Below are positions 1 through 64,000 of a stretch of DNA of 64,000 nucleotides, piece after piece. Below the pieces are notes generated by a model. The model saw only the letters and a list, made by a program, of their open reading frames with translations, was not told where the DNA came from and made no database searches. Source of the DNA: Eledone cirrhosa. Lineage: Eukaryota. Positions within the stretch are counted from its first letter, which is position 1; each line of letters starts with the position of its first letter. The DNA lies in contig OZ024750.1 of assembly GCA_964016885.1 (NCBI GenBank), positions 30,814,001 to 30,878,000 of the forward strand. Reading direction: 5' to 3'. The translations under genes and the position numbers were made by a program.

Positions 1-3000
1 GTTTCATCATCCATTGCTTCTGTTATCTCACAGAACACTGTTAAATAAAACAATTACATATTATAAAGTGTCAAAATAAAATGATAATAGTACAAATGTT
101 CTATATATGAAGGATAACATATGTAATAATTATTGCATTAATACTCACACTCAGTAGTTCTTTGGACAGTTGGAACAGCTGTCGAAGTTACAGGTGCTAT
201 TGTTGATGACACTGGTGCTATTGTTGATGACACAGGTTCTAGAATTTAGAAAGAATATCTACTTAGTGAATTGTTTTAGACAATTAAAGCAGATCTTTGC
301 ACCAGAATAATTGTAAAGAAAATAAAATGAAATATCCTAGATTTCATAGTGAATCTAATCTTTTAAATATTTGAAAATTAGAGCGTTCCACATATCCATA
401 AGTATGTATTTGTAAATTAGAGCGTTCCACATATCCATGAATAAATCTATGTATTTATATGTTGATTTGTCTAGATGTATAAAAGGTACACAGCTCAATG
501 TCAGTATTATGTTTTTCTTTCCATAAACATTATTGCTACTAAGAAATGTTTTAAGGGAGATAAGAATAAATGAAGTAAACTAATTGTTTGATTCAATGTG
601 ATATTTATTTTGACTGATGGCTGATAAAAGTTCCAGAAAATTTGGAAGGAAATGTAATAAAGTAAAATAAAATCAATATGAATTAGATTTTTTACGAAGA
701 ATAAGCTGCTGGTAGAAAGCGATATTATGTAGAAACCACAGAAAATAGTGGAGATTCAAATATTTGTATTAATAGTTGAACATGACATTAAGTTTGAAGA
801 ATTATTATTGATACAATATTTATAAACCACATTAATATAATGCCAGTAATAAACGAATGATTTACAATAGGAAAATTATATATGAATGAGACAAATTTAC
901 AAATTTTTAAAGAACTCCCTTCAGATAGATATGTCTTTCAATTAAATATATAGTTTCCATTTATGTGTGATGTAGGAATGAAGCACTTGCCTGATTAATT
1001 ATACATATGAAATATACCAGCTTTTATGTAATTGTTAGATGTTAACTGGGATTGTTTCAAAATGAGTCCTTATAAAAGAACTGTAAATTTTAAAAACAAA
1101 ACTAGAGATCCAAGTTGCAAATTAATGAAGGTTTATTGGAATTACCAAATATACAGCCATACATATATATTGAAAGATTTATCTACATTGATTCATGTGG
1201 AAAGTCATTTAACATAAAACTCACGTTGACTAGTTGTTGGTACACTTGATACAACTGCTGAAGTGGCTGGTGCCAGTGTTGTTGTAAGAGGATCTGAAGT
1301 TTAGGAAAGAAATCACAATAATCAAAATCTATGTGACTTTACAAATCAGTTGTAAATAAAGATGAGTTGCATCAGGATTAATAGAAATAAATAAATAGAT
1401 TGGAATTATCACTTACGTTTACAGATTTTGGCAGACACAGATACGACCATATCTTCTGTGATATCATCAGCTTCAATTACAATCGTCACAGTTTCTTGAC
1501 CATTACCACTTGGAATACCAACTGGTCTATCTGGGGTTGATGTCTGTAGAATGGATTTACATTTTTTATTAATGATAAGATTAAAATAAACAGTGATCGT
1601 CAAAAAATATAGACAATGTCGAAATTCCATTAATGAATGAAATAGAACACTGTCTGAATTATATGTCCTTATATTCTGTAAATTCTAGAATATCATTATA
1701 TGAATTGAAATATTAATATAAAGGAAGATACATATGAAATAAGTAGAAAGAAATATGAAACTTGAATGAAAAAATCACCATCAGATTACCTTGATTGTGT
1801 ATTCTGTTGAAGGATTTGATAACAAAACAGTATATGATTTCACATTTTCATGGTCAACAAGGCTTATTGTTCCACCGGCATTAAGCGTGGGACCAATTTG
1901 TAATGTGACAGTTCTTTTAGATTTAGCATTAGTTTTCCAGCCAACATTTGGTCTCACATCACTAGGTGATCCGACATTAGGACTTAAGGTGATTGCTGTA
2001 TCAGGGATGAAAGTTTCATCATCCATTGCTTCTGTTATCTCACAGAACACTGTTAAATAAAACAATTACATATTATAAAGTGTCAAAATAAAATGATAAT
2101 AGTACAAATGTTCTATATATGAAGGATAACATATGTAATAATTATTGCATTAATACTCACACTCAGTAGTTCTTTGGACAGTTGGAACAGCTGTCGAAGT
2201 TACAGGTGCTATTGTTGATGACACAGGTGCTATTGTTGATGACACAGGTGCTATTGTTGATGACACTGGTGCTATTGTTGATGACACAGGTGCTATTGTT
2301 GATGACACAGGTGCTATTGTTGATGACACAGGTTCTAGAATTTAGAAAGAATATCTACTTAGAGAATTGTTTTAGACAATTAAAGCAGATCTTTGCACCA
2401 GAATAATTGTAAAGAAAATAAAATGAAATATCCTAGATTTCATAGTGAATCTAATCTTTTAAATATTTGAAAATTAGAGCGTTCCACATATCCATAAGTA
2501 TATATTTGTAAAATAGAGCGTTCCACATATCCATGAATAAATCTATGTATTTATATGTTGATTTGTCTAGATGTATAAAAGGTACACAGCTCAATGTCAG
2601 TATTATGTTTTTCTTTCCATAAACATTATTGCTACTAAGAAATGTTTTAAGGGAGATAAGAATAAATGAAGTAAACTAATTGTTTGATTCAATGTGATAT
2701 TTATTTTGACTGATGGCTGATAAAAGTTCCAGAAAATTTGGAAGGAAATGTAATAAAGTAAAATCAAATCAATATGAATTAGATTTTTTACGAAGAATAA
2801 GCTGCTGGTAGAAAGCGATATTATGTAGAAACCACAGAAAATAGTGGAGATTCAAATATTTGTATTAATAGTTGAACATGACATTAAGTTTGAAGAATTA
2901 TTATTGATACAATATTTATAAACCACATTAATATAATGCCAGTAATAAACGAATGAATTACAATAGGAAAATTATATATGAAAGACAAATTTACAAATTT

Positions 3001-6000
3001 TTAAAGAACTCCCTTCAGATAGATATGTCTTTCAATTAAATATATAGTTTCCATTTATGTGTGATGTAGGAATGAAGCACTTGCCTGATTAATTATACAT
3101 ATGAAATATACCAGCTTTTATGTAATTGTTAGATGTTAACTGGGATTGTTTCAAAATGAGTCCTTATAAAAGAACTGTAAATTTTAAAAACAAAACTAGA
3201 GATCCAAGTTGCAAATTAATGAAGGTTTATTGGAATTACCAAATATACAGCCATACATATATATTGAAAGATTTATCTACATTGATTCATGAGGAAAGTC
3301 ATTTAACATAAAACTCACGTTGACTAGTTGTTGGTACACTTGATACAACTGCTGAAGTGGCTGGTGCCAGTGTTGTTGTAAGAGGATCTGAAGTTTAGGA
3401 AAGAAATCACAATAATCAAAATCTATGTGACTTTACAAATCAGTTGTAAATAAAGATGAGTTGCATCAGGATTAATAGAAATAAATAAATAGTTTGGAAT
3501 TATCACTTACGTTTACAGATTTTGGCAGACACAGATACGACCATATCTTCTGTGATATCATCAGCTTCAATTACAATTGTCACAGTTTCTTGACCATTAC
3601 CACTTGGAATACCAACTGGTCTATCTGGAGTTGATGTCTGTAGAATGGATTTACATTTTTTACTAATGATAAGATTAAAATAAACAGTGATCGTCAAAAA
3701 ATATAGACAATGTCGAAATTCCATTAATGAATGAAATAGAACACTGTCTGAATTATATGTCCTTATATTCTGTAAATTCTAGAATATCATTATATGAATT
3801 GAAATATTAATATAAAGGAAGATACATATGAAATAAGTAGAAAGAAATATGAAACTTGAATGAAAAAATCACCATCAGATTACCTTGATTGTGTATTCTG
3901 TTGAAGGATTTGATAACAAAACAGTATATGATTTCACATTTTCATGGTCAACAAGGCTTATTGTTCCACCGGCATTAAGCGTGGGACCAATTTGTAATGT
4001 GACAGTTCTTTTAGATTTAGCATTAGTTTTCCAGCCAACATTTGGTCTCACATCACTAGGTGATCCGACATTAGGACTTAAGGTGATTGCTGTATCAGGG
4101 ATGAAAGTTTCATCATCCATTGCTTCTGTTATCTCACAGAACACTGTTAAATAAAACAATTACATATTATAAAGTGTCAAAATAAAATGATAATAGTACA
4201 AATGTTCTATATATGAAGGATAACATATGTAATAATTATTGCATTAATACTCACACTCAGTAGTTCTTTGGACAGTTGAAACAGCTGTCGAAGTTACAGG
4301 TGCTATTGTTGATGACACAGGTGCTATTGTTGATGACACTGGTGCTATTGTTGATGACACAGGTGCTATTGTTGATGACACAGGTTCTAGAATTTAGAAA
4401 GAATATCTACTTAGTGAATTGTTTTAGACAATTAAAGCAGATCTTTGCACCAGAATAATTGTAAAGAAAATAAAATGAAATATCCTAGATTTCATAGTGA
4501 ATCTAATCTTTTAAATATTTGAAAATTAGAGCGTTCCACATATCCATAAGTATGTATTTGTAAATTAGAGCGTTCCACATATCCATGAATAAATCTATGT
4601 ATTTATATGTTGATTTGTCTAGATGTATAAAAGGTACACAGCTCAATGTCAGTATTATGTTTTTCTTTACATAAACATTATTGCTACTAAGAAATGTTTT
4701 AAGGGAGATAAGAATAAATGAAGTAAACTAATTGTTTGATTCAATGTGATATTTATTTTGACTGATGGCTGATAAAAGTTCCAGAAAATTTGGAAGGAAA
4801 TGTAATAAAGTAAAATCAAATCAATATGAATTAGATTTTTTACGAAGAATAAGCTGCTGGTAGAAAGCGATATCATGTAGAAACCACAGAAAATAGTGGA
4901 GATTCAAATATTTGTATTAATAGTTGAACATGACATTAAGTTTGAAGAATTATTATTGGTACAATATTTATAAACCACATTAATATAATGCCAGTAATAA
5001 ACGTATGAATTACAATAGGAAAATTATATATGAATGAGACAAATTTACAAATTTTTAAAGAACTCCCTTCAGATAGATATATCTTTCAATTAAATATATA
5101 GTTTCCATTTATGTGTGATGTAGGAATGAAGCACTTGCCTGATTAATTATACATATGAAATATACCAGCTTTTATGTAATTGTTAGATGTTAACTGGGAT
5201 TGTTTCAAAATGAGTCCTTATAAAAAAACTGTAAATTTTAAAAACAAAACTAGATATCCAATTTGCAAATTAATGAAGGTTTATTGGAATTACCAAATAT
5301 ACAGCCATACATATATATTGAAAGATTTATCTACATTGATTCATGAGGAAAGTAATTTAACATAAAACTCACGTTGACTAGTTGTTGGTACACTTGATAC
5401 AACTGCTGAAGTGGCTGGTGCCAGTGTTGTTGTAAGAGGATCTGAAGTTTAGGAAAGAAATCACAACAATCAAAATCTATGTGACTTTACAAATCAGTTG
5501 TAAATAAAGATGAGTTGCATCAGGATTAATAGAAATAAATAAATAGATTGGAATTATCACTTACGTTTACAGATTTTGGCAGACACAGATACGACCAAAT
5601 CTTCTGTGATATCATCAGCTTCAATTACAATCGTCACAGTTTCTTGACCATTACCACTTGGAATACCAACTGGTCTATCTGGGGTTGATGTCTGTAGAAT
5701 GGATTTACATTTTTTATTAATGATAAGATTAAAATAAACAGTGATCGTCAAAAAATATAGACACTGTCGAAATTCCATTAATGAATGAAATAGAACACTG
5801 TCTGAATTATATGTCCTTATATTCTGTAAATTCTAGAATATCATTATATGAATTGAAATATTAATATAAAGGAAGATACATATGAAATAAGTAGAAAGAA
5901 ATATGAAACTTGAATGAAAAAATCACCATCAGATTACCTTGATTGTGTATTCTGTTGAAGGATTTGATAACAAAACAGTATATGATTTCACATTTTCATG

Positions 6001-9000
6001 GTCAACAAGGCTTATTGTTCCACCGGCATTCAGCGTGGGACCAATTTGTAATGTGACAGTTCTTTTAGATTTAGCATTAGTTTTCCAGCCAACATTTGGT
6101 CTCACATCACTAGGTGATCCGACATTAGGACTTAAGGTGATTACTGTATCAGGGATGAAAGTTTCATCATCCATTGCTTCTGTTATCTCACAGAACACTG
6201 TTAAATAAAACAATTACATATTATAAAGTGTCAAAATAAAATGATAATAGTACAAATGTTCTATATATGAAGGATAACATATGTAATAATTATTGCATTA
6301 ATACTCACACTCAGTAGTTCTTTGGACAGTTGGAACAGCTGTCGAAGTTACAGGTGCTATTGTTGATGACACAGGTGCTATTGTTGATGACACAGGTTCT
6401 AGAATTTAGAAAGAATATCTACTTAGTGAATTGTTTTAGACAATTAAAGCAGATCTTTGCACCAGAATAATTGTAAAGAAAATAAAATGAAATATCCTAG
6501 ATTTCATAGTGAATCTAATCTTTTAAATATTTGAAAATTAGAGCGTTCCACATATCCATAAGTATGTATTTGTAAATTAGAGCGTTCCACATATCCATGA
6601 ATAAATCTATGTATTTATATGTTGATTTGTCTAGATGTATAAAAGGTACACAGCTCAATGTCAGTATTATGTTTTTCTTTACATAAACATTATTGCTACT
6701 AAGAAATGTTTTAAGGGAGATAAGAATAAATGAAGTAAACTAATTGTTTGATTCAATGTGATATTTATTTTGACTGATGGCTGATAAAACTTCCAGAAAA
6801 TTTGGAAGGAAATGTAATAAAGTAAAATCAAATCAATATGAATTAGATTTTTTACGAAGAATAAGCTGCTGGTAGAAAGCGATATCATGTAGAAACCACA
6901 GAAAATAGTGGAGATTCAAATATTTGTATTAATAGTTGAACATGACATTAAGTTTGAAGAATTATTATTGATACAATATTTATAAACCACATTAATATAA
7001 TGCCAGTAATAAACGAATGAATTACAATAGGAAAATTATATATGAATGAGACAAATTTACAAATTTTTAAAGAACTCCCTTCAGATAGATATGTCTTTCA
7101 ATTAAATATATAGTTTCCATTTATGTGTGATGTAGGAATGAAGCACTTGCCTGATTCATTATACATATGAAATATACCAGCTTTTATGTAATTGTTAGAT
7201 GTTAACTGGGATTGTTTCAAAATGAGTCCTTATAAAAGAAGTGTAAATTTTAAAAACAAAACTAGAGATCCAAGTTGCAAATTAATGAAGGTTTATTGGA
7301 ATTACCAAATATACAGCCATACATATATATTGAAAGATTTATCTACATTGATTCATGAGGAAAGTCATTTAACATAAAACTCACGTTGACTAGTTGTTGG
7401 TACACTTGATACAACTGCTGAAGTGGCTGGTGCCAGTGTTGTTGTAAGAGGATCTGAAGTTTAGGAAAGGAATCACAATAATCAAAATCTATGTGACTTT
7501 ACAAATCAGTTGTAAATAAAGATGAGTTGCATCAGGATTAATAGAAATAAATAAATAGATTGGAATTATCACTTACGTTTACAGATTTTGGCAGACACAG
7601 ATACGACCATATCTTCTGTGATATCATCAGCTTCAATTACAATCGTCACAGTTTCTTGACCATTACCACTTGGAATACCAACTGGTCTATCTGGGGTTGA
7701 TGTCTGTAGAATGGATTTACATTTTTTATTAATGATAAGATTAAAATAAACAGTGATCGTCAAAAAATATAGACAATGTCGAAATTCCATTAATGAATGA
7801 AATAGAACACTGTCTGAATTATATGTCCTTATATTCTGTAAATTCTAGAATATCATTATATGAATTGAAATATTAATATAAAGGAAGATACATATGAAAT
7901 AAGTAGAAAGAAATATGAAACTTGAATGAAAAAATCACCATCAGATTACCTTGATTGTGTATTCTGTTGAAGGATTTGATAACAAAACAGTATATGATTT
8001 CACATTTTCATGGTCAACAAGGCTTATTGTTCCACCGGCATTAAGCGTGGGACCAATTTGTAATGTGACAGTTCTTTTAGATTTAGCATTAGTTTTCCAG
8101 CCAACATTTGGTCTCACATCACTAGGTGATCCGACATTAGGACTTAAGGTGATTGCTGTATCAGGGATGAAAGTTTCATCATCCATTGCTTCTGTTATCT
8201 CACAGAACACTGTTAATTAAAACAATTACATATTATAAAGTGTCAAAATAAAATGATAATAGTACAAATGTTCTATATATGAAGGATAACATATGTAATA
8301 ATTATTGCATTAATACTCACACTCAGTAGTTCTTTGGACAGTTGGAACAGCTGTCGAAGTTACAGGTGCTATTGTTGATGACACTGGTGCTATTGTTGAT
8401 GACACAGGTTCTAGAATTTAGAAAGAATATCTACTTAGTGAATTGTTTTAGACAATTAAAGCAGATCTTTGCACCAGAATAATTGTAAAGAAAATAAAAT
8501 GAAATATCCTAGATTTCATAGTGAATCTAATCTTTTAAATATTTGAAAATTAGAGCGTTCCACATATCCATAAGTATGTATTTGTAAATTAGAGCGTTCC
8601 ACATATCCATGAATAAATCTATGTATTTATATGTTGATTTGTCTAGATGTATAAAAGGTACACAGCTCAATGTCAGTATTATGTTTTTCTTTCCATAAAC
8701 ATTATTGCTACTAAGAAATGTTTTAAGGGAGATAAGAATAAATGAAGTAAACTAATTGTTTGATTCAATGTGATATTTATTTTGACTGATGGCTGATAAA
8801 AGTTCCAGAAAATTTGGAAGGAAATGTAATAAAGTAAAATAAAATCAATATGAATTAGATTTTTTACGAAGAATAAGCTGCTGGTAGAAAGCGATATTAT
8901 GTAGAAACCACAGAAAATAGTGGAGATTCAAATATTTGTATTAATAGTTGAACATGACATTAAGTTTGAAGAATTATTATTGATACAATATTTATAAACC

Positions 9001-30000: not shown

Positions 30001-33000
30001 CAGATTTTGGCAGACACAGATACGACCATATCTTCTGTGATATCATCAGCTTCAATTACAATCGTCACAGTTTCTTGACCATTACCACTTGGAATACCAA
30101 CTGGTCTATCTGGGGTTGATGTCTGTAGAATGGATTTATATTTTTTATTAATGATAAGATTAAAATAAACAGTGATCGTCAAAAATATAGACAATGTCGA
30201 AATTCCATTAATGAATGAAATAGAACACTGTCTGAATTATATGTCCTTATATTCTGTAAATTCTAGAATATCATTATATGAATTGAAATATTAATATAAA
30301 GGAAGATACATATGAAATAAGTAGAAAGAAATATGAAACTTGAATGAAAAAATCACCATCAGATTACCTTGATTGTGTATTCTGTTGAAGGATTTGATAA
30401 CAAAACAGTATATGATTTCACATTTTCATGGTCAACAAGGCTTATTGTTCCACCGGCATTAAGCGTGGGACCAATTTGTAATGTGACAGTTCTTTTAGAT
30501 TTAGCATTAGTTTTCCAGCCAACATTTGGTCTCACATCACTAGGTGATCCGACATTAGGACTTAAGGTGATTGCTGTATCAGGGATGAAAGTTTCATCAT
30601 CCATTGCTTCTGTTATCTCACAGAACACTGTTAAATAAAACAATTACATATTATAAAGTGTCAAAATAAAATGATAATAGTACAAATGTTCTATATATGA
30701 AGGATAACATATGTAATAATTATTGCATTAATACTCACACTCAGTAGTTCTTTGGACAGTTGGAACAGCTGTCGAAGTTACAGGTGCTATTGTTGATGAC
30801 ACAGGTGCTATTGTTGATGACACAGGTTCTAGAATTTAGAAAGAATATCTACTTAGTGAATTGTTTTAGACAATTAAAGCAGATCTTTGCACCACAATAA
30901 TTGTAAAGAAAATAAAATGAAATATCCTAGATTTCATAGTGAATCTAATCTTTTAAATATTTGAAAATTAGAGCGTTCCACATATCCATAAGTATGTATT
31001 TGTAAATTAGAGCGTTCCACATATCCATGAATAAATCTATGTATTTATATGTTGATTTGTCTAGATGTATAAAAGGTACACAGCTCAATGTCAGTATTAT
31101 GTTTTTCTTTACATAAACATTATTGCTACTAAGAAATGTTTTAAGGGAGATAAGAATAAATGAAGTAAACTAATTGTTTGATTCAATGTGATATTTATTT
31201 TGACTGATGGCTGATAAAAGTTCCAGAAAATTTGGAAGGAAATGTAATAAAGTAAAATAAAATCAATATGAATTAGATTTTTTATGAAGAATAAGCTGCT
31301 GGTAGAAAGCGATATCATGTAGAAACCACAGAAAATAGTGGAGATTCAAATATTTGTATTAATAGTTGAACATGACATTAAGTTTGAAGAATTATTATTG
31401 ATACAATATTTATAAACCACATTAATATAATGCCAGTAATAAACGAATGAATTACAGTAGGAAAATTATATATGAATGAGACAAATTTACAAATTTTTAA
31501 AGAGCTCCCTTTAGATAGATATGTCTTTCAATTAAATATATAGTTTCCATTTATGTGTGATGTAGGAATGAAGCACTTGCCTGATTAATTATACATATGA
31601 AATATACCAGCTTTTATGTAATTGTTAGATGTTAACTGGGATTGTTTCAAAATGAGTCCTTATAAAAGAAGTGTAAATTTTAAAAACAAAACTAGAGATC
31701 CAAGTTGCAAATTAATGAAGGTTTATTGGAATTACCAAATATACAGCCATACATATATATTGAAAGATTTATCTACATTGATTCATGAGGAAAGTCATTT
31801 AACATAAAACTCACGTTGACTAGTTGTTGGTACACTTGATACAACTGCTGAAGTGGCTGGTGCCAGTGTTGTTGTAAGAGGATCTGAAGTTTAGGAAAGA
31901 AATCACAATAATCAAAATCTATGTGACTTTACAAATCAGTTGTAAATAAAGATGAGTTGCATCAGGATTAATAGAAATAAATAAATAGATTGGAATTATC
32001 ACTTACGTTTACAGATTTTGGCAGACACAGATACGACCATATCTTCTGTGATATCATCAGCTTCAATTACAATCGTCACAGTTTCTTGACCATTACCACT
32101 TGGAATACCAACTGGTCTATCTGGGGTTGATGTCTGTAGAATGGATTTATATTTTTTATTAATGATAAGATTAAATTAAACAGTGATCGTCAAAAAATAT
32201 AGACAATGTCGAAATTCCATTCATCATCATCATCATCATCATCACCGTTTTACGTCCGTTCTTCCACGCTAGCATGGGTTAGACGGGTTGTCCTGTTGTG
32301 GGCAGTGTCTGGTCGGCTGACCATGCCTTGCTCATACAGGAACTGATCTGGCTTGATTTCTACAGCTGGATGCCCTTCCTAACACCAACCTCATTTACAG
32401 TGAGTGCTGGGTGCTTTTTCGTGGCGCCTACACGTCCACTTTACAGTGTGGGCTGGGTGCTTTTTTGCCGTGGCACCTCCACGACCACCTTGCGGTGGGG
32501 GGGGGGGGGCATATTGTTTATATGCTTCAGCATGTACCCATGGGAGGTCGGGTACCCTGTATTACTGCGTGACGCCAGAAGTCACGGTCGTGTGTCATTG
32601 ACTTTGAGAGGTGTAGTTGGGTAAGGTCGGCTTTTATCACCTCATCCCAAGTCATCTTGGGTCTCCCCACTCCGCGGTTTCCATCAACTTCTAGTGCTCT
32701 GCACCTTTTTATGCAGCTGTCATCCTTCATACGCATCACATGTCCATACCAGCGTAACCGCCTCTCCTGCACGCAGCATTTGATTCCTCTTATGCTCAGT
32801 CTCTCTCTCAATTCATTTATGCTTTGTCGTTCACGTATATTACTGTTACACATCCATCGGAGCATGCAGGCTTCGTTTCTCTCTAATCTACGTAAGTCTT
32901 CCACCTTCAGCGCCCAGGTCTCACTACCATGCAACATCGCTGTTCGGATACACGCATCATACAGTCTGCCTTTCATTCTGAGGGAGAAGCCTTTTGCAGC

Positions 33001-36000
33001 TAGCAGTGGTAGTAGTTCCCTAAACTTCTTCCATCCCGTTCTTACCCTAGTTATTGTACTTTCTGAGCACCCACCTCCGTTGCTAATTCGGTCACCTAGG
33101 TAGCAGAAGCTGTCTACTGTTTCTACAGGGCCCTCCCAGAGATTGGTGGTACTTGTTTCCTGTGGCTGTTTGCTTGCTGTTTCAGCACAGCTGCTGCATG
33201 TGAATCCTACATTCTTAATTAAGCTTCCTGAGATCCCGCTACATCTCTTGTGTACCCATTGTTTGCATTTGGGGCAAAGAATGGAGTTCCTACCTACACC
33301 TTTCCTACATACTGAGCAAGGCCATTTCCCTGAGGGGATCTGGGTTCCGTTTTCTCGTCTACTTATAAGGACCTTAGTCTTTGTCATGTTGACTTTGAGG
33401 CCCTTTCTCTCTAGTCCCTGCTTCCAGGTTTGGAATTTATTCTCTAGTTCTACCATAGATTCAGCTATGAGTGCGAGGTCATCAGCATACAGGAGTTCCC
33501 ATGGGCATCCGGTCTTAAACTCCTCCGTTATTGCCTGCAGGACTATGATGAACAGGAGAGGGCTAAGAACAGAGCCCTGGTGGACCCCAACCTGTACGCT
33601 AAATTCCTCGCTATACTCATTGCCAATCCTAACTTTGCTGACTGCTCCCCTATACATGGCTTGTACCGCTTTCACAAGCCATTCATCTACTCCTAGTTTT
33701 CTAAGAGCCCACCAGATTACTGCACGTGGAACTCTGTCAAAGGCTTTCTCAAGGTCGACAAATGCCAAGTAGAGTGGCTTACTTTTAGCTAGGTACTTTT
33801 CCTGTAATTGCCTCACAAGGAAGAGCGCATCAGTGGTGCCTTTCCCTGGAACAAACCCAAATTGCATCTCGTCTATATTCACCCGGTCCCTAATCAGCTG
33901 TGCTATAACTCTTTCTGTTACTTTCATGACCTGGTCCATCAACTTTATACCTCTATAGTTTCCTCTATCTAGTGCATCGCCTTTACCTTTGTAGCAGTTG
34001 ACAATGATGCTACTGCACCAATCTTTTGGTATGGCCCCCTCTAGTATTACCTGGTTAACGATACGTGTGGTTATAGTGTGACCTACAGACCCAGATGCCT
34101 TCAGCATCTCGGCAGCTATACCCGATGGACCGGTTGCCTTCCCTATCTTCATATCTCTGATTGCCTTACTTACTACGCTGCCGCTGACTTGTACTGCTGG
34201 TCCCTCTATAGGGTCTACGTGGGGTAGGGTCTCTTCTTCCCATGCATTCTCCTCATTTAGTAATCTATCATAATGACTCTTCCATGCATCTTTCTTCTCA
34301 GCACTTGTGAGGGCAAGCTCACCTTTATCATTCCGGATACACTTCTCTCCAATGACATCACAACTATCTCTGACACACTGCCTCGCAATCTTGAATACCT
34401 CCTGTTTCTGGTCCTCACGTTGTAAAACATGCTTGAATTTTCTATCCTCTGCTTCCCTCCTAGCTAAGTATACTTGTCGCCTAGCTTCCCTCTTGGTCTC
34501 TATGTAATGAATGAATGAAATAGAACACTAATGAATGAAATAGAACACTGTCTGAATTATATGTCCTTATATTCTGTAAATTCTAGAATATCATTATATG
34601 AATTGAAATATTAATATAAAGGAAGATACATATGAAATAAGTAGAAAGAAATATGAAACTTGAATGAAAAAATCACCATCAGATTACCTTGATTGTGTAT
34701 TCTGTTGAAGGATTTGATAACAAAACAGTATATGATTTCACATTTTCATGGTCAACAAGGCTTATTGTTCCACCGGCATTAAGCGTGGGACCAATTTGTA
34801 ATGTGACAGTTCTTTTAGATTTAGCATTAGTTTTCCAGCCAACATTTGGTCTCACATCACTAGGTGATCCGACATTAGGACTTAAGGTGATTGCTGTATC
34901 AGGGATGAAAGTTTCATCATCCATTGCTTCTGTTATCTCACAGAACACTGTTAAATAAAACAATTACATATTATAAAGTGTCAAAATAAAATGATAATAG
35001 TACAAATGTTCTATATATGAAGGATAACATATGTAATAATTATTGCATTAATACTCACACTCAGTAGTTCTTTGGACAGTTGGAACAGCTGTCGAAGTTA
35101 CAGGTGCTATTGTTGATGACACAGGTGGTATTGTTGATGACACAGGTTCTAGAATTTAGAAAGAATATCTACTTAGTGAATTGTTTTAGACAATTAAAGC
35201 AGATCTTTGCACCAGAATAATTGTAAAGAAAATAAAATGAAATATCCTAGATTTCATAGTGAATCTAATCTTTTAAATATTTGAAAATTAGAGCGTTCCA
35301 CATATCCATAAGTATGTATTTGTAAATTAGAGCGTTCCACATATCCATGAATAAATCTATGTATTTATATGCTGATTTGTCTAGATGTATAAAAGGTACA
35401 CAGCTCAATGTCAGTATTATGTTTTTCTTTACATAAACATTATTGCTACTAAGAAATGTTTTAAGGGAGATAAGAATAAATGAAGTAAACTAATTGTTTG
35501 ATTCAATGTGATATTTATTTTGACTGATGGCTGATAAAAGTTCCAGAAAATTTGGAAGGAAATGTAATAAAGTAAAATAAAATCAATATGAATTAGATTT
35601 TTTATGAAGAATAAGCTGCTGGTAGAAAGCGATATCATGTAGAAACCACAGAAAATAGTGGAGATTCAAATATTTGTATTAATAGTTGAACATGACATTA
35701 AGTTTGAAGAATTATTATTGATACAATATTTATAAACCACATTAATATAATGCCAGTAATAAACGAATGAATTACAATAGGAAAATTATATATGAATGAG
35801 ACAAATTTACAAATTTTTAAAGAACTCCCTTTAGATAGATATGTCTTTCAATTAAATATATAGTTTCCATTTATGTGTGATGTAGGAATGAAGCACTTGC
35901 CTGATTAATTATACATATGAAATATACCAGCTTTTATGTAATTGTTAGATGTTAACTGGGATTGTTTCAAAATGAGTCCTTATAAAAGAACTGTAAATTT

Positions 36001-54000: not shown

Positions 54001-57000
54001 ATATATGAATGAGACAAATTTACAAATTTTTAAAGAACTCCCTTCAGATAGATATATCTTTCAATTAAATATATAGTTTCCATTTATGTGTGATGTAGGA
54101 ATGAAGCACTTGCCTGATTAATTATACATATGAAATATACCAGCTTTTATGTAATTGTTAGATGTTAACTGGGATTGTTTCAAAATGAGTCCTTATAAAA
54201 GAAGTGTAAATTTTAAAAACAAAACTAGAGATCCAAGTTGCAAATTAATGAAGGTTTATTGGAATTACCAAATATACAGCCATACATATATATTGAAAGA
54301 TTTATCTACATTGATTCATGAGGAAAGTCATTTAACATAAAACTCACGTTGACTAGTTGTTGGTACACTTGATACAACTGCTGAAGTGGCTGGTGCCAGT
54401 GTTGTTGTAAGAGGATCTGAAGTTTAGGAAAGAAATCACAATAATCAAAATCTATGTGACTTTACAAATCAGATGTAAATAAAGATGAGTTGCATCAGGA
54501 TTAATAGAAATAAATAAATAGATTGGAATTATCACTTACGTTTACAGATTTTGGCAGAAACAGATACGACCATATCTTCTGTGATATCATCAGCTACAAT
54601 TACAATCGTCACAGTTTCTTGACCATTACCACTTGGAATACCAACTGGTCTATCTGGGGTTGATGTCTGTAGAATGGATTTACATTTTTTATTAATGATA
54701 AGATTAAAATAAACAGTGATCGTCAAAAAATATAGACAATGTCGAAATTCCATTAATGAATGAAATAGAACACTGTCTGAATTATATGTCCTTATATTCT
54801 GTAAATTCTAGAATATCATTATATGAATTGAAATATTAATATAAAGGAAGATACATATGAAATAAGTAGAAAGAAATATGAAACTTGAATGAAAAAATCA
54901 CCATCAGATTACCTTGATTGTGTATTCTGTTGAAGGATTTGATAACAAAACAGTATATGATTTCACATTTTCATGGTCAACAAGGCTTATTGTTCCACCG
55001 GCATTAAGCGTGGGACCAATTTGTAATGTGACAGTTCTTTTAGATTTAGCATTAGTTTTCCAGCCAACATTTGGTCTCACATCACTAGGTGATCCGACAT
55101 TAGGACTTAAGGTGATTGCTGTATCAGGGATGAAAGTTTCATCATCCATTGCTTCTGTTATCTCACAGAACACTGTTAATTAAAACAATTACATATTATA
55201 AAGTGTCAAAATAAAATGATAATAGTACAAATGTTCTATATATGAAGGATAACATATGTAATAATTATTGCATTAATACTCACACTCAGTAGTTCTTTGG
55301 ACAGTTGGAACAGCTGTCGATGTTACAGGTGCTATTGTTGATGACACAGGTGCTATTGATGATGACACAGGTTCTAGAATTTAGAAAGAATATCTACTTA
55401 GTGAATTGTTTTAGACAATTAAAGCAGATCTTTGCACCAGAATAATTGTAAAGAAAATAAAATGAAATATCCTAGATTTCATAGTGAATCTAATCTTTTA
55501 AATATTTGAAAATTAGAGCGTTCCACATATCCATAAGTATGTATTTGTAAATTAGAGCGTTCCACATATCCATGAATAAATCTATGTATTTATATGTTGA
55601 TTTGTCTAGATGTATAAAAGGTACACAGCTCAATGTCAGTATTATGTTTTTCTTTACATAAACATTATTGCTACTAAGAAATGTTTTAAGGGAGATAAGA
55701 ATAAATGAAGTAAACTAATTGTTTGATTCAATGTGATATTTATTTTGACTGATGGCTGATAAAAGTTCCAGAAAATTTGGAAGGAAATGTAATAAAGTAA
55801 AATAAAATCAATATGAATTAGATTTTTTACGAAGAATAAGCTGCTGGTAGAAAGCGATATCATGTAGAAACCACAGAAAATAGTGGAGATTCAAATATTT
55901 GTATTAATAGTTGAACATGACATTAAGTTTGAAGAATTATTATTGATACAATATTTATAAACAACATTAATATAATTGTTTCTACTTTAGGCACAAGGCC
56001 AGCAATTACCCAGTGCATTACTGGTACTTTATTTTATCGACTCCGTAAGGATGAAAGGCAAGGTCAACCTCATTAATATAATTGTTTCTACGTTAGGCAC
56101 AAGGCCAGCAATTACCCAGTGTATTACTGGTACTTTATTTTATCGACCCAGTAAGGATCGATAAAATAAAGTACCAGTAATACACTGGGTAATTGCTGGC
56201 CTTGTGCCTAACGTAGAAACAATTATATTAATGAGGTTGACCTTGCCTTTCATCCTTACGGAGAATGCCAGTAATAAACGTATGAATTACAATAGGAAAA
56301 TTATATATGAATGAGACAAATTTACAAATTTTTAAAGAACTCCCTTCAGATAGATATATCTTTCAATTAAATATATAGTTTCCATTTATGTGTGATGTAG
56401 GAATGAAGCACTTGCCTGATTAATTATACATATGAAATATACCAGCTTTTATGTAATTGTTAGATGTTAACTGGGATTGTTTCAAAATGAGTCCTTATAA
56501 AAGAAGTGTAAATTTTAAAAACAAAACTAGAGATCCAAGTTGCAAATTAATGAAGGTTTATTGGAATTACCAAATATACAGCCATACATATATATTGAAA
56601 GATTTATCTACATTGATTCATGAGGAAAGTCATTTAACATAAAACTCACGTTGACTAGTTGTTGGTACACTTGATACAACTGCTGAAGTGGCTGGTGCCA
56701 GTGTTGTTGTAAGAGGATCTGAAGTTTAGGAAAGAAATCACAATAATCAAAATCTATGTGACTTTACAAATCAGATGTAAATAAAGATGAGTTGCATCAG
56801 GATTAATAGAAATAAATAAATAGATTGGAATTATCACTTACGTTTACAGATTTTGGCAGACACAGATACGACCATATCTTCTGTGATATCATCAGCTTCA
56901 ATTACAATCGTCACAGTTTCTTGACCATTACCACTTGGAATACCAACTGGTCTATCTGGGGTTGATGTCTGTAGAATGGATTTACATTTTTTATTAATGA

Positions 57001-60000
57001 TAAGATTAAAATAAACAGTGATCGTCAAAAAATATAGACAATGTCGAAATTCCATTAATGAATGAAATAGAACACTGTCTGAATTATATGTCCTTATATT
57101 CTGTAAATTCTAGAATATCATTATATGAATTGAAATATTAATATAAAGGAAGATACATATGAAATAAGTAGAAAGAAATATGAAACTTGAATGAAAAAAT
57201 CACCATCAGATTACCTTGATTGTGTATTCTGTTGAAGGATTTGATAACAAAACAGTATATGATTTCACATTTTCATGGTCAACAAGGCTTATTGTTCCAC
57301 CGGCATTAAGCGTGGGACCAATTTGTAATGTGACAGTTCTTTTAGATTTAGCATTAGTTTTCCAGCCAACATTTGGTCTCACATCACTAGGTGATCCGAC
57401 ATTAGGACTTAAGGTGATTGCTGTATCAGGGATGAAAGTTTCATCATCCATTGCTTCTGTTATCTCACAGAACACTGTTAAATAAAACAATTACATATTA
57501 TAAAGTGTCAAAATAAAATGATAATAGTACAAATGTTCTATATATGAAGGATAACATATGTAATAATTATTGCATTAATACTCACACTCAGTAGTTCTTT
57601 GGACAGTTGGAACAGCTGTCGAAGTTACAGGTGCTATTGTTGATGACACAGGTGCTATTGTTGATGACACAGGTTCTAGAATTTAGAAAGAATATCTACT
57701 TAGTGAATTGTTTTAGACAATTAAAGCAGATCTTTGCACCAGAATAATTGTAAAGAAAATAAAATGAAATATCCTAGATTTCATAGTGAATCTAATCTTT
57801 TAAATATTTGAAAATTAGAGCGTTCCACATATCCATAAGTATGTATTTGTAAATTAGAGCGTTCCACATATCCATGAATAAATCTATGTATTTATATGTT
57901 GATTTGTCTAGATGTATAAAAGGTACACAGCTCAATGTCAGTATTATGTTTTTCTTTACATAAACATTATTGCTACTAAGAAATGTTTTAAGGGAGATAA
58001 GAATAAATGAAGTAAACTAATTGTTTGATTCAATGTGATATTTATTTTGACTGATGGCTGATAAAAGTTCCAGAAAATTTGGAAGGAAATGTAATAAAGT
58101 AAAATAAAATCAATATGAATTAGATTTTTTACGAAGAATAAGCTGCTGGTAGAAAGCGATATCATGTAGAAACCACAGAAAATAGTGGAGATTCAAATAT
58201 TTGTATTAATAGTTGAACATGACATTAAGTTTGAAGAATTATTATTGATACAATATTTATAAACAACATTAATATAATTGTTTCTACTTTAGGCACAAGG
58301 CCAGCAATTACCCAGTGCATTACTGGTACTTTATTTTATCGACTCCGTAAGGATGAAAGGCAAAGTCAACCTCATTAATATAATGCCAGTAATAAACGTA
58401 TGAATTACAATAGGAAAATTATATATGAATGAGACAAATTTACAAATTTTTAAAGAACTCCCTTCAGATAGATATATCTTTCAATTAAATATATAGTTTC
58501 CATTTATGTGTGATGTAGGAATGAAGCACTTGCCTGATTAATTATACATATGAAATATACCAGCTTTTATGTAATTGTTAGATGTTAACTGGGATTGTTT
58601 CAAAATGAGTCCTTATAAAAGAAGTGTAAATTTTAAAAACAAAACTAGAGATCCAAGTTGCAAATTAATGAAGGTTTATTGGAATTACCAAATATACAGC
58701 CATACATATATATTGAAAGATTTATCTACATTGATTCATGAGGAAAGTCATTTAACATAAAACTCACGTTGACTAGTTGTTGGTACACTTGATACAACTG
58801 CTGAAGTGGCTGGTGCCAGTGTTGTTGTAAGAGGATCTGAAGTTTAGGAAAGAAATCACAATAATCAAAATCTATGTGACTTTACAAATCAGATGTAAAT
58901 AAAGATGAGTTGCATCAGGATTAATAGAAATAAATAAATAGATTGGAATTATCACTTACGTTTACAGATTTTGGCAGAAACAGATACGACCATATCTTCT
59001 GTGATATCATCAGCTTCAATTACAATCGTCACAGTTTCTTGACCATTACCACTTGGAATACCAACTGGTCTATCTGGGGTTGATGTCTGTAGAATGGATT
59101 TACATTTTTTATTAATGATAAGATTAAAATAAACAGTGATCGTCAAAAAATATAGACAATGTCGAAATTCCATTAATGAATGAAATAGAACACTGTCTGA
59201 ATTATATGTCCTTATATTCTGTAAATTCTAGAATATCATTATATGAATTGAAATATTAATATAAAGGAATATACATATGAAATAAGTAGAAAGAAATATG
59301 AAACTTGAATGAAAAAATCACCATCAGATTACCTTGATTGTGTATTCTGTTGAAGGATTTGATAACAAAACAGTATATGATTTCACATTTTCATGGTCAA
59401 CAAGGCTTATTGTTCCACCGGCATTAAGCGTGGGACCAATTTGTAATGTGACAGTTCTTTTAGATTTAGCATTAGTTTTCCAGCCAACATTTGGTCTCAC
59501 ATCACTAGGTGATCCGACATTAGGACTTAAGGTGATTGCTGTATCAGGGATGAAAGTTTCATCATCCATTGCTTCTGTTATCTCACAGAACACTGTTAAT
59601 TAAAACAATTACATATTATAAAGTGTCAAAATAAAATGATAATAGTACAAATGTTCTATATATGAAGGATAACATATGTAATAATTATTGCATTAATACT
59701 CACACTCAGTAGTTCTTTGGACAGTTGGAACAGCTGTCGAAGTTACAGGTGCTATTGTTGATGACACAGGTGCTATTGATGATGACACAGGTTCTAGAAT
59801 TTAGAAAGAATATCTACTTAGTGAATTGTTTTAGACAATTAAAGCAGATCTTTGCACCAGAATAATTGTAAAGAAAATAAAATGAAATATCCTAGATTTC
59901 ATAGTGAATCTAATCTTTTAAATATTTGAAAATTAGAGCGTTCCACATATCCATAAGTATGTATTTGTAAATTAGAGCGTTCCACATATCCATGAATAAA

Positions 60001-63000
60001 TCTATGTATTTATATGTTGATTTGTCTAGATGTATAAAAGGTACACAGCTCAATGTCAGTATTATGTTTTTCTTTACATAAACATTATTGCTACTAAGAA
60101 ATGTTTTAAGGGAGATAAGAATAAATGAAGTAAACTAATTGTTTGATTCAATGTGATATTTATTTTGACTGATGGCTGATAAAAGTTCCAGAAAATTTGG
60201 AAGGAAATGTAATAAAGTAAAATAAAATCAATATGAATTAGATTTTTTACGAAGAATAAGCTGCTGGTAGAAAGCGATATCATGTAGAAACCACAGAAAA
60301 TAGTGGAGATTCAAATATTTGTATTAATAGTTGAACATGACATTAAGTTTGAAGAATTATTATTGATACAATATTTATAAACAACATTAATATAATTGTT
60401 TCTACTTTAGGCACAAGGCCAGCAATTACCCAGTGCATTACTGGTACTTTATTTTATCGACTCCGTAAGGATGAAAGGCAAGGTCAACCTCATTAATATA
60501 ATTGTTTCTACGTTAGGCACAAGGCCAGCAATTACCCAGTGTATTACTGGTACTTTATTTTATCGACCCAGTAAGGATCGATAAAATAAAGTACCAGTAA
60601 TACACTGGGTAATTGCTGGCCTTGTGCCTAACGTAGAAACAATTATATTAATGAGGTTGACCTTGCCTTTCATCCTTACGGAGAATGCCAGTAATAAACG
60701 TATGAATTACAATAGGAAAATTATATATGAATGAGACAAATTTACAAATTTTTAAAGAACTCCCTTCAGATAGATATATCTTTCAATTAAATATATAGTT
60801 TCCATTTATGTGTGATGTAGGAATGAAGCACTTGCCTGATTAATTATACATATGAAATATACCAGCTTTTATGTAATTGTTAGATGTTAACTGGGATTGT
60901 TTCAAAATGAGTCCTTATAAAAGAAGTGTAAATTTTAAAAACAAAACTAGAGATCCAAGTTGCAAATTAATGAAGGTTTATTGGAATTACCAAATATACA
61001 GCCATACATATATATTGAAAGATTTATCTACATTGATTCATGAGGAAAGTCATTTAACATAAAACTCACGTTGACTAGTTGTTGGTACACTTGATACAAC
61101 TGCTGAAGTGGCTGGTGCCAGTGTTGTTGTAAGAGGATCTGAAGTTTAGGAAAGAAATCACAATAATCAAAATCTATGTGACTTTACAAATCAGATGTAA
61201 ATAAAGATGAGTTGCATCAGGATTAATAGAAATAAATAAATAGATTGGAATTATCACTTACGTTTACAGATTTTGGCAGACACAGATACGACCATATCTT
61301 CTGTGATATCATCAGCTTCAATTACAATCGTCACAGTTTCTTGACCATTACCACTTGGAATACCAACTGGTCTATCTGGGGTTGATGTCTGTAGAATGGA
61401 TTTACATTTTTTATTAATGATAAGATTAAAATAAACAGTGATCGTCAAAAAATATAGACAATGTCGAAATTCCATTAATGAATGAAATAGAACACTGTCT
61501 GAATTATATGTCCTTATATTCTGTAAATTCTAGAATATCATTATATGAATTGAAATATTAATATAAAGGAAGATACATATGAAATAAGTAGAAAGAAATA
61601 TGAAACTTGAATGAAAAAATCACCATCATATTACCTTGATTGTGTATTCTGTTGAAGGATTTGATAACAAAACAGTATATGATTTCACATTTTCATGGTC
61701 AACAAGGCTTATTGTTCCACCGGCATTAAGCGTGGGACCAATTTGTAATGTGACAGTTCTTTTAGATTTAGCATTAGTTTTCCAGCCAACATTTGGTCTC
61801 ACATCACTAGGTGATCCGACATTAGGACTTAAGGTGATTGCTGTATCAGGGATGAAAGTTTCATCATCCATTGCTTCTGTTATCTCACAGAACACTGTTA
61901 ATTAAAACAATTACATATTATAAAGTGTCAAAATAAAATGATAATAGTACAAATGTTCTATATATGAAGGATAACATATGTAATAATTATTGCATTAATA
62001 CTCACACTCAGTAGTTCTTTGGACAGTTGGAACAGCTGTCGATGTTACAGGTGCTATTGTTGATGACACAGGTGCTATTGATGATGACACAGGTTCTAGA
62101 ATTTAGAAAGAATATCTACTTAGTGAATTGTTTTAGACAATTAAAGCAGATCTTTGCACCAGAATAATTGTAAAGAAAATAAAATGAAATATCCTAGATT
62201 TCATAGTGAATCTAATCTTTTAAATATTTGAAAATTAGAGCGTTCCACATATCCATAAGTATGTATTTGTAAATTAGAGCGTTCCACATATCCATGAATA
62301 AATCTATGTATTTATATGTTGATTTGTCTAGATGTATAAAAGGTACACAGCTCAATGTCAGTATTATGTTTTTCTTTACATAAACATTATTGCTACTAAG
62401 AAATGTTTTAAGGGAGATAAGAATAAATGAAGTAAACTAATTGTTTGATTCAATGTGATATTTATTTTGACTGATGGCTGATAAAAGTTCCAGAAAATTT
62501 GGAAGGAAATGTAATAAAGTAAAATAAAATCAATATGAATTAGATTTTTTACGAAGAATAAGCTGCTGGTAGAAAGCGATATCATGTAGAAACCACAGAA
62601 AATAGTGGAGATTCAAATATTTGTATTAATAGTTGAACATGACATTAAGTTTGAAGAATTATTATTGATACAATATTTATAAACAACATTAATATAATTG
62701 TTTCTACTTTAGGCACAAGGCCAGCAATTACCCAGTGCATTACTGGTACTTTATTTTATCGACTCCGTAAGGATGAAAGGCAAAGTCAACCTCATTAATA
62801 TAATGCCAGTAATAAACGTATGAATTACAATAGGAAAATTATATATGAATGAGACAAATTTACAAATTTTTAAAGAACTCCCTTCAGATAGATATATCTT
62901 TCAATTAAATATATAGTTTCCATTTATGTGTGATGTAGGAATGAAGCACTTGCCTGATTAATTATACATATGAAATATACCAGCTTTTATGTAATTGTTA

Positions 63001-64000
63001 GATGTTAACTGGGATTGTTTCAAAATGAGTCCTTATAAAAGAAGTGTAAATTTTAAAAACAAAACTAGAGATCCAAGTTGCAAATTAATGAAGGTTTATT
63101 GGAATTACCAAATATACAGCCATACATATATATTGAAAGATTTATCTACATTGATTCATGAGGAAAGTCATTTAACATAAAACTCACGTTGACTAGTTGT
63201 TGGTACACTTGATACAACTGCTGAAGTGGCTGGTGCCAGTGTTGTTGTAAGAGGATCTGAAGTTTAGGAAAGAAATCACAATAATCAAAATCTATGTGAC
63301 TTTACAAATCAGATGTAAATAAAGATGAGTTGCATCAGGATTAATAGAAATAAATAAATAGATTGGAATTATCACTTACGTTTACAGATTTTGGCAGACA
63401 CAGATACGACCATATCTTCTGTGATATCATCAGCTTCAATTACAATCGTCACAGTTTCTTGACCATTACCACTTGGAATACCAACTGGTCTATCTGGGGT
63501 TGATGTCTGTAGAATGGATTTACATTTTTTATTAATGATAAGATTAAAATAAACAGTGATCGTCAAAAAATATAGACAATGTCGAAATTCCATTAATGAA
63601 TGAAATAGAACACTGTCTGAATTATATGTCCTTATATTCTGTAAATTCTAGAATATCATTATATGAATTGAAATATTAATATAAAGGAAGATACATATGA
63701 AATAAGTAGAAAGAAATATGAAACTTGAATGAAAAAATCACCATCAGATTACCTTGATTGTGTATTCTGTTGAAGGATTTGATAACAAAACAGTATATGA
63801 TTTCACATTTTCATGGTCAACAAGGCTTATTGTTCCACCGGCATTAAGCGTGGGACCAATTTGTAATGTGACAGTTCTTTTAGATTTAGCATTAGTTTTC
63901 CAGCCAACATTTGGTCTCACATCACTAGGTGATCCGACATTAGGACTTAAGGTGATTGCTGTATCAGGGATGAAAGTTTCATCATCCATTGCTTCTGTTA
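1..64000 (-). CDS. Interior of one giant multi-exon mucin-like gene: ~30 x [PTS linker + Cys-bounded discoidin-like domain], about 120 exons, no start or stop in the window
   Basis: Manual splicing of unit 1: A 2334-2161, B 2049-1790, C 1543-1417, D 1293-1225, next A 238-149, next B from 37. All introns are GT..AG (111, 246, 123, 986 bp). Exons (546 bp) plus introns (1466 bp) equal the 2012-bp period. Phases 1/0/1/1 join in frame (split codons t+tg=L, c+at=H, c+aa=Q). No transcript evidence is available. Confidence 0.88.
149..238 (-). CDS. Exon A, common 90-bp form: (Q)PVSSTIAPVSSTIAPVTSTAVPTVQRTTE, PTS-rich
   Basis: Acceptor ttctag| at 240-239 and donor |gtgagt at 148-143. Symmetric phase 1-1, no stop. 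Confidence 0.88.
375..438. repeat. 39-bp-period intronic direct repeat (core aaattagagcgttccacatatccat), normally 2 copies per unit
   Basis: Cores at 375 and 414. One copy at 43333-43357 (unit 39 bp shorter) and three at 51341-51443 (unit 39 bp longer). Confidence 0.93.
1225..1293 (-). CDS. Exon D (representative, 69 bp): (H)PLTTTLAPATSAVVSSVPTTSQ, PTS-rich; in every unit at 61-aa ORF start +193..+261
   Basis: Acceptor ttcag| after a pyrimidine tract and donor |gtgagt. Phase 1-1, GC-richer than the flanks, missed by the ORF track. Confidence 0.88.
1417..1543 (-). CDS. Exon C (representative, 127 bp): TSTPDRPVGIPSGNGQETVTIVIEADDITEDMVVSVSAKICK, C-terminal part of the repeated domain
   Basis: Acceptor ctacag| and donor |gtaagt, phase 0-1. 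It is the C-terminal part of the 73-aa ORF, whose N-terminal part is intronic. Confidence 0.9.
1790..2049 (-). CDS. Exon B (representative, 260 bp): (L)FCEITEAMDDETFIPDTAITLS...VRPNVGW...NVKSYTVLLSNPSTEYTIK, N-terminal part of the repeated domain
   Basis: Acceptor ttaacag| and donor AAG|gtaatc, phase 1-0. Matches the core of the 94-aa minus ORF present in every unit (ORF low coordinate +9..+268). Confidence 0.9.
2161..2334 (-). CDS. Exon A, expanded 174-bp form with (PVSSTIA)x6; also at 16409-16582, 18503-18676, 24621-24794
   Basis: Six copies of the 21-mer (plus strand tgctattgttgatgacacagg) lie between the same splice sites, frame preserved. Confidence 0.87.
4255..4386 (-). CDS. Exon A, 132-bp form with (PVSSTIA)x4; also at 10333-10464
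   Basis: Four 21-bp copies between the same splice sites, frame preserved. Confidence 0.86.
32221..34528 (-). mobile_element. 5'-truncated non-LTR retrotransposon (RTE-type LINE), 2308-bp insertion in the B-C intron
   Basis: The unit period jumps from 2012 to 4320 and GC content rises sharply. There is an RT ORF, a ~300-bp 3'UTR and a (CAT)7 tail at 32222-32242, read as (ATG/TGA)n on the element strand. No endonuclease domain is present, consistent with truncation. Confidence 0.95.
32527..34506 (-). CDS. LINE reverse transcriptase ORF, 5'-truncated, with a C4HC3 PHD-type finger after the RT core
   Basis: Motifs GKATGPSG, NYRGIKL, QFGF, FVDLEKAFD, GVHQGSVLSP, YADD, FCYLG and LHGSETW. Manual translation upstream of the Met at 34152 stays open up to the junction at ~34506 (..WKSHYDRLLNEEN..). 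Confidence 0.93.
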   Translation of the reverse strand, partial: YIETKREARRQVYLARREAEDRKFKHVLQREDQKQEVFKIARQCVRDSCDVIGEKCIRNDKGELALTSAEKKDAWKSHYDRLLNEENAWEEETLPHVDPIEGPAVQVSGSVVSKAIRDMKIGKATGPSGIAAEMLKASGSVGHTITTRIVNQVILEGAIPKDWCSSIIVNCYKGKGDALDRGNYRGIKLMDQVMKVTERVIAQLIRDRVNIDEMQFGFVPGKGTTDALFLVRQLQEKYLAKSKPLYLAFVDLEKAFDRVPRAVIWWALRKLGVDEWLVKAVQAMYRGAVSKVRIGNEYSEEFSVQVGVHQGSVLSPLLFIIVLQAITEEFKTGCPWELLYADDLALIAESMVELENKFQTWKQGLERKGLKVNMTKTKVLISRRENGTQIPSGKWPCSVCRKGVGRNSILCPKCKQWVHKRCSGISGSLIKNVGFTCSSCAETASKQPQETSTTNLWEGPVETVDSFCYLGDRISNGGGCSESTITRVRTGWKKFRELLPLLAAKGFSLRMKGRLYDACIRTAMLHGSETWALKVEDLRRLERNEACMLRWMCNSNIRERQSINELRERLSIRGIKCCVQERRLRWYGHVMRMKDDSCIKRCRALEVDGNRGVGRPKMTWDEVIKADLTQLHLSKSMTHDRDFWRHAVIQGTRPPMGTC
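34510..34549. repeat. 20-bp tandem duplication of target sequence (aatgaatgaaatagaacact x2) at the LINE 5' junction
   Basis: Copies at 34510-34529 and 34530-34549. Uninterrupted units have a single copy. Confidence 0.92.
53859..53952 (-). mobile_element. 94-bp 5'-truncated SINE fragment (Nin-domain-like) with 12-bp TSD cattaatataat
   Basis: TSD at 53847-53858 and 53953-53964, unit +106 bp. The minus strand reads gttgactttgcctttcatccttacggagtcgataaaataaagtaccag, which I recall as a conserved SINE core. The family call is from memory. Confidence 0.8.
55977..56263. mobile_element. Compound SINE insert: copy 1 + TSD + diverged copy 2 + inverted 106-bp duplication
   Basis: Unit +290 bp. Copy 1 at 55977-56070, TSD at 56071-56082, copy 2 from 56083, inverted arm at 56158-56263. 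Confidence 0.88.
56041..56263. repeat. Perfect inverted repeat, 106-bp arms, 11-nt loop
   Basis: 56041-56146 is the exact reverse complement of 56158-56263. Loop is cccagtaagga. Confidence 0.95.
58279..58372 (-). mobile_element. 94-bp SINE fragment with 12-bp TSD (copy propagated by unit duplication)
   Basis: Same sequence and site as 53859-53952, offset 4420. Confidence 0.8.
60397..60683. mobile_element. Second compound SINE insert with the perfect 106-bp inverted repeat (60461-60566 / 60578-60683)
   Basis: Matches 55977-56263 at offset 4420. Confidence 0.88.
62699..62792 (-). mobile_element. 94-bp SINE fragment with 12-bp TSD
   Basis: Same sequence and site as 53859-53952, offset 8840. 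Confidence 0.8.

Follow-up and report, generated by a model that had tools for sequence, protein, structure and literature searches.

A 2-kb tandem repeat in the 3.0 Gb genome of the octopod Eledone cirrhosa raises the question of whether a macrosatellite can be the coding part of a gene. The stretch of DNA analysed here, referred to as the window, is 64,000 nucleotides long (C10:30814001-30878000). The repeat is probably the central coding part of a single SCO-spondin-like mucin gene of octopods, with a predicted mRNA of ~42 kb and a predicted secreted protein of 13,943 residues. This reading is based on the exon order, the splice dinucleotides, the open frame, the flanking domain exons, the near-identity of the units, and the diverged copies at the edges.

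The four-exon cassette

The dominant period of the window is 2,012 bp. The window sits entirely within a 115-kb array (C10:30797152-30911789) of 55 units, each composed of exons A, B, C, and D, and array-wide exon mapping found AG/GT ends in 220 of 220 exons. Exons of the window were anchored on splice sites. On the minus strand, 119 complete exons follow one another in the invariant order C-D-A-B (30 C of 127 nt, 30 D of 69 nt, 30 A, and 29 B of 260 nt), and all 119 have an AG acceptor and a GT donor. The array interior and one example of each exon are as follows.

1..64000, minus strand: array interior with 119 complete exons; its complete B exons belong to units 18-46 of 55
2161..2334, minus strand: exon A, a Pro/Thr/Ser linker of phase 1-1, 174 nt (90 nt plus 0-4 extra 21-nt repeats)
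1790..2049, minus strand: exon B, 260 nt, phase 1-0, initial two thirds of a discoidin-like domain
1417..1543, minus strand: exon C, 127 nt, phase 0-1, final third of the domain with the second Cys
1225..1293, minus strand: exon D, a Pro/Thr/Ser linker of phase 1-1, 69 nt

When joined, the 119 exons give 16,540 nt or 5,513 codons with no stop, as against 315 and 614 stops in the other two frames. Inclusion of the two B exons cut by the window ends brings the hand sum to ~16.8 kb and ~5,600 aa, the figures given by a first-pass annotation, which had described an in-frame four-exon cassette on the minus strand. Its count of about 30 repeats holds for the window, but the whole array has 55 units. 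Its unit of 2012 bp with 546 nt of exon stands as the dominant period but not as a fixed length. Of the 30 copies of exon A in the window, 24 measure 90 nt and the other six 132 or 174 nt, owing to a 21-nt internal repeat, and the D-A intron ranges from 947 to 1,276 nt in the window. Indels of 17-290 nt in this intron and the 21-nt repeats of exon A are the sources of unit-length variation. The introns of a unit measure 111, 123, 246, and ~986 nt, and their splice sites match the consensus and are identical across nearly all units. No stop or frameshift occurs in the 55 units, and no N gap is present anywhere in the gene. The array linkers are only ~53 aa each and contain 24% T, 19% S, and 14% P.

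Whole-unit gain or loss would keep the frame because A, D, and B plus C are each of phase 1-1 and a multiple of three in length, and the array could therefore grow and be homogenised. Under the proposed mechanism, a single mature mRNA of ~42 kb would contain all units. Alternatively, the gene may be real and expressed with most mature mRNAs skipping most units, so that the usual protein would be far shorter and of variable length. The near-uniform splice sites would permit this, as would the phase-1 junctions among A, B, C, and D, eight of nine of which give a sense codon and stay in frame (A-to-A alone gives TAA, e.g. window 149-2334). Short introns with consensus sites favour sequential splicing, and the within-unit introns are of this kind. 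Extensive skipping is rather unlikely, and splicing of the full array is the preferred reading. Rolling-circle translation of a back-spliced 546-nt unit was also considered; it is possible on paper and unsupported. A circle of one unit is stop-free and yields the same D>A junction as linear splicing, so D>A reads on a single-unit consensus are not decisive.

The complete gene model

The flanks were surveyed over 200 kb upstream and 400 kb downstream of the window. The resulting model, built by hand, spans 215 kb and comprises 269 exons, with 41,832 nt of coding sequence, 13,943 aa (~1.47 MDa), and its sole stop at the end. It uses 268 AG acceptors, 267 GT donors, and one GC donor, and the array accounts for 73% of the predicted protein. 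Its features outside the array are as follows.

C10:30971671: start ATG, from which the 28 upstream exons join stop-free
C10:30912219-30971671: 28 5' exons and edge exon D0 (signal peptide, VWD-C8-TIL x3, LDLa), orthologue-guided and with Pfam matches
C10:30791918-30796120: PTS exon of 4,203 nt (1,400 aa), from frame and splice sites
C10:30756513-30796120: PTS exon, diverged domain copy B'/C', and 17 3' exons (TSP1, TIL, putative cystine knot, stop), assigned by hand
C10:30760016: GC-AG intron in the 3' part
C10:30756513: stop codon TAA at the end of the putative cystine-knot exon

The predicted protein begins with a signal peptide, an EGF-like region, three VWD-C8-TIL assemblies, and an LDLa domain, followed by 55 repeats of a PTS linker and a domain. 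After the array come a long Lys-rich PTS region, one more domain, TSP1/TIL/VWC-like repeats, and a putative cystine knot. The upstream exons were built with octopod 'SCO-spondin-like' proteins as guides, which were retrieved with a VWD exon (4 of 58 candidates). The PTS exon, B', C', and the 17 3' exons were assigned by frame and splice sites; three small 3' exons (47, 47, and 50 nt) were chosen on phase and cysteine pattern, and the donor of exon 4 was set by hand. The frame continues into and out of the array via diverged edge exons. At the upstream edge lies an older, diverged D-like exon (D0), and at the downstream edge a single older, diverged B'/C' domain, with B' 71% identical. Joining exon 28 directly to the first exon A gave a stop, which was resolved by D0 between them.

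Pfam matches to VWD, C8, TIL, LDLa, and TSP1 were obtained on the flanking exons, and these matches, together with exon-by-exon agreement with the orthologues, define the three N-terminal VWD-C8-TIL assemblies. Pfam recognised one LDLa, six TSP1 exon matches, two TIL, and one weak VWC. Among the 22 exon frames that were scanned, Pfam matched neither CysD nor a fourth VWD, and N-terminal queries located no additional VWD 3' of the array. The last exon encodes 12 Cys; it scores below the Pfam cut-off for Cys_knot (E=0.0035, score 18.1 vs cut-off 24) and weakly matches Norrin and sclerostin. Simple hydropathy indicates a signal-peptide-like start and no transmembrane segment, the only hydrophobic segment of the whole protein being residues 1-28 (19-residue windows starting at 1-10). 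The flanks supply what the first-pass annotation had proposed to look for there, a signal-peptide-like ATG exon upstream and, downstream, a last exon that ends in a stop and encodes the putative cystine knot. With the continuous frame, they agree with its prediction that a single gene of great size encodes a secreted glycoprotein of the beads-on-a-string type.

The long PTS exon is 59% P+T+S. It is basic (125 Lys, 2 acidic residues), as opposed to the acidic array domains (-7 each), and the sequences make charge complementarity between the two possible, within or between chains.

The repeated domain and its predicted fold

Exons B and C together encode a domain of 128 aa with a net charge of -7 and two Cys, one near each end. 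The predicted protein has 56 copies, 55 in the array and one diverged. Pfam F5/8 type C was matched neither by exon B or C alone nor by whole domains of homologues. A PDB sequence search with the domain gave nothing credible, the ESM Atlas returned only scores <=0.80, and exon B alone as the query in a word-index search retrieved 0 of 91 candidates. HMMER with the domain yielded 31 relatives, the named ones being octopus and chiton proteins. Three of the 31 (P0023, P0033, and P0035) were set aside because they look like repeats of another kind.

In the orthologue from O. bimaculoides, this domain recurs with an identical B-C join and is 58-60% identical to that of the unit. The fold model was made for this 60%-identical domain, not for the array's own, from a 12-sequence alignment, and it reached a pLDDT of 92.6. 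Foldseek matched the model to neuropilin b, DDR, factor V/VIII C2, and CBM32, and VIA-align gave a discoidin-type match with Z 12.7 and rmsd 2.8 over 125 of 129 residues. Judged from this model of its orthologue, the array domain would be a galactose-binding-like beta-sandwich of the discoidin (F5/8 type C) fold. This prediction agrees with the F5/8 domains that PMC4948705 describes as characteristic of lophotrochozoan mucin-like proteins. A discoidin-like fold alone would not reveal the ligand, and glycan, lipid, or collagen binding are candidate activities.

Many diverged copies of related domains, with PTS between them, occur in three JGI proteins (P0046, P0037, and P0011, up to 4,511 aa), which suggests a broad family of invertebrate domains not yet catalogued.

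Orthologues and paralogues

The N-terminal 1,420 aa are 79% identical to O. bimaculoides XP_052821913.1 and 75% identical to Argonauta hians GAB1608825.1. The model of XP_052821913.1 independently places its B-C join, and the join of C with a D-like linker, where the array gene has them. Its two domain copies are only 65% alike, in contrast to the near-identical units of E. cirrhosa, and a further O. bimaculoides copy lies in a partial gene (XP_052834281.1) on a 4.6-kb contig. The earlier remark that the gene may be unannotated is half right: orthologues are annotated, but their models break off before or just inside the array, one past LDLa (1,426 aa, partial) and the other after two domain copies (1,731 aa).

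Two paralogues were found in the same genome. The C5 paralogue (C5:67446764-67593653) has the SCO-spondin-like mucin architecture of the C10 array gene. It contains 22 related domains, of which twenty lie two by two in ten repeats of a 5,777-bp unit, with neighbouring units >99% identical over most of the array. Of its 64 mapped exons, 62 were joined into 4,407 codons with no stop; a linker exon expected near the 3' edge was not found. The C5 and C10 arrays both being present, cassette amplification therefore occurred at least two times independently in the family. The adjacent C10 paralogue (C10:30533128-30551433) has a single PTS frame of 6,102 codons made of Thr/Ser/Gln/Pro repeats (45% Thr), and a profile search did not find the repeated domain in this gene. 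An intron of this paralogue (C10:30556339-30576068) carries a 4.4-kb tandem repeat of about 4.5 copies, 98-99% identical, and no exon was recognised in it. Comparison of the 3' ends of the paralogues by tblastx gave mostly repeat noise.

These three paralogues became giant in two ways, two of them by amplifying a multi-exon cassette and one by a huge PTS frame, and they offer a natural comparison for the growth of repeat proteins. For a mucin family known in databases from models that stop at the repeat, the gene model supplies the full architecture, and it defines a mollusc domain family without a Pfam entry. It also means that some cephalopod 'macrosatellites' are coding. If fully spliced, the gene would be among the most exon-rich known; titin has 363 exons.

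Comparison with known systems

By its predicted architecture, the array gene belongs to the SCO-spondin-like invertebrate mucins and not to MUC2/MUC5. Vertebrate SCO-spondin carries more repeats than the octopus gene, and the central region of vertebrate MUC2/MUC5 is one large exon. The group concerned is that of the invertebrate gel-forming mucins related to SCO-spondin and hemolectin (Lang et al. 2016, PMC4948705). Compared with the members described in that paper, the octopus gene has a domain too diverged for Pfam in 56 copies, CysD is unmatched, and a fourth or fifth VWD is absent among the exons scanned. PMC4948705 also gives MUC2, MUC5AC, and MUC5B a D1-D2-D3 head, globular beads within PTS, and a cystine-knot tail; the octopus gene shares the head and the beads within PTS and has a putative knot at the tail. 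Their beads are CysD, whereas the octopus gene has discoidin beads, 220 array exons, and a TSP1 tail without D4. In the chiton 'mucin-2-like' XP_064614628.1, seven related domains, 91-96% identical to the first, alternate with PTS; they are distant in sequence from the octopus domain (27%).

The array mechanism resembles that of LPA kringle IV type 2. PMC7613587 describes the latter as an intron-bearing multi-exon tandem unit within one gene, with exons 98-100% identical and repeats making up to 70% of the gene. The LPA protein is unrelated, and its unit is 5.5 kb with two exons in up to ~40 copies, as against a 2-kb four-exon unit in 55 copies here. Copy-number polymorphism is proven for LPA, whereas the octopus array is known here from one sample. 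NBPF Olduvai triplets (PMC9584774) are likewise exon-intron units amplified in tandem, and their ~4.8-kb higher-order unit resembles the 5.8-kb two-domain unit of the C5 paralogue. Unlike the octopus gene, NBPF has an unrelated domain and is no secreted mucin. The array is real, unusual in scale, and explained by known mechanisms. No prior description of it was found in a literature search with thin coverage of subscription journals.

Predicted product and function

From its sequence, we commit to a product predicted to be a secreted mucin that polymerises and carries discoidin beads of multivalent action; an adhesive or fibre role is the main rival. A mucus gel or an adhesive coat is the most likely form. 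Family knowledge suggests that the chain would polymerise end to end via its third VWD assembly and the putative cystine knot at the C terminus, that the linkers would be O-glycosylated spacers, and that the 56 discoidin-fold beads would bind glycans or cross-link chains non-covalently and multivalently. The beads would take the position of the CysD domains in vertebrate MUC2/MUC5.

In vWF, the D3 cysteines of the C-x-C-x-C motif (1097-1101) and of the Cys1142 loop form interchain links. The motif of the Argonauta orthologue aligns with the former and the loop is absent, and the octopus gene shows the same pattern. Structure 7kwo has Ala at both D3 interchain sites.

It is possible that the gene and protein are as modelled but the role is structural or adhesive, in a Reissner-fibre-like thread or a sucker or egg coat, and not that of a swelling gel. 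SCO-spondin, too, has TSP1 repeats, LDLa, and a TIL/VWC tail, the array linkers are short, one D3 interchain site is missing, and a limpet SCO-spondin-like protein occurs in pedal adhesive mucus (PMC7333891). Against this stand the 1,400-aa PTS exon with its high P+T+S content and the presence of family members in octopus skin mucus. The latter are SCO-spondin-like proteins of O. vulgaris (PMC11431876; PMC10138644 Table S1, mentions 1-23 of 122). By eye, among the rows listed, the O. vulgaris mucus peptides resemble the adjacent paralogue more than the array gene, and none of the domain motifs searched for occurs among the Table S1 matches listed for PMC10138644.

A broader proposal, which is tentative, starts from the polymerising mucin. 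Octopods may build giant mucins in the manner of LPA, with intron-bearing cassettes for an uncatalogued lectin bead of discoidin fold amplified and homogenised independently in several paralogues. Here, all 269 exons would be spliced together to give a chain of 1.5 MDa, in which 56 acidic beads would cross-link a gel or trap microbes, and bead number might vary between individuals and tune the mucus.

Evolution and copy number of the array

The four-exon cassette and its introns would have been amplified together to 55 copies, likely via unequal crossing-over. Neighbouring units differ by 7.2 of 1,616 columns and distant units by 10-11, and variants lie in position-specific sub-blocks along the array. 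We infer that these blocks and the likeness of near units are the pattern expected of unequal crossing-over and conversion.

The first-pass annotation had called the introns about as homogeneous as the exons, and this is borne out. Over all 55 units, exons show a nucleotide diversity of 0.0051 and introns one of 0.0067, with 30 of 546 and 89 of 1,466 sites segregating, respectively (Fisher p=0.67). Exon indels are only of +21, +42, and +84 nt, and introns have about 8 non-triplet indel classes; this contrast by itself is weak (about 0.08, hand calculation). Within the array, pN/pS is 0.39 (13 N, 11 S; p=0.02), with 10 of 13 replacement variants in a single copy, and dN/dS between the edge copy and the array is 0.64, a mild constraint. 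Selection signals on the array are modest, and young, near-identical copies would stay mostly open without selection too.

The near-equal variability of exons and introns, with a retroelement hosted by one unit, is what a neutral macrosatellite within a now-silent mucin gene would show, its open frame reflecting young age only. Such an origin is very unlikely, given 49 intact non-array exons, an N-terminal part conserved with the orthologues at 75-79%, the low pN/pS, and the independent open array of a second gene. Inflation of a short array by the assembler is less likely still. Although 21 unit pairs are identical over the compared columns, the position-specific variants, one unique insertion, and the lack of N gaps speak against it. 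So do read-contig depths: relative to the unique flank, they are about 45-60 times as high for runs X1 (460 vs 7-9) and X2 (623 vs 11-14) and about 85-180 times as high for the third run, X3 (503 vs 3-6). The runs are genomic contigs of one sample, possibly the assembly's own; they show no spliced joints, which for genomic reads carries no information on expression, and their depth does not equal copy number.

The retroelement, found in one of the 55 units, lies in a B-C intron.

32220..34530 (ends approximate), minus strand: non-LTR retroelement of 2,308 nt; host intron B-C of unit 31; matched by RVT_1 and PHD

This element, the gene family, and the domain fold were all absent from the first-pass annotation. 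A genome search with the element gave no match, probably as an effect of the skipping of common words. The element, which we take to be RTE-like, has a stop-free frame of 666 codons (34527-32530) with the RVT_1 and PHD matches, in the sense direction of the gene. It is preceded by a 20-nt tandem duplication and ends in a (GAT)n tail.
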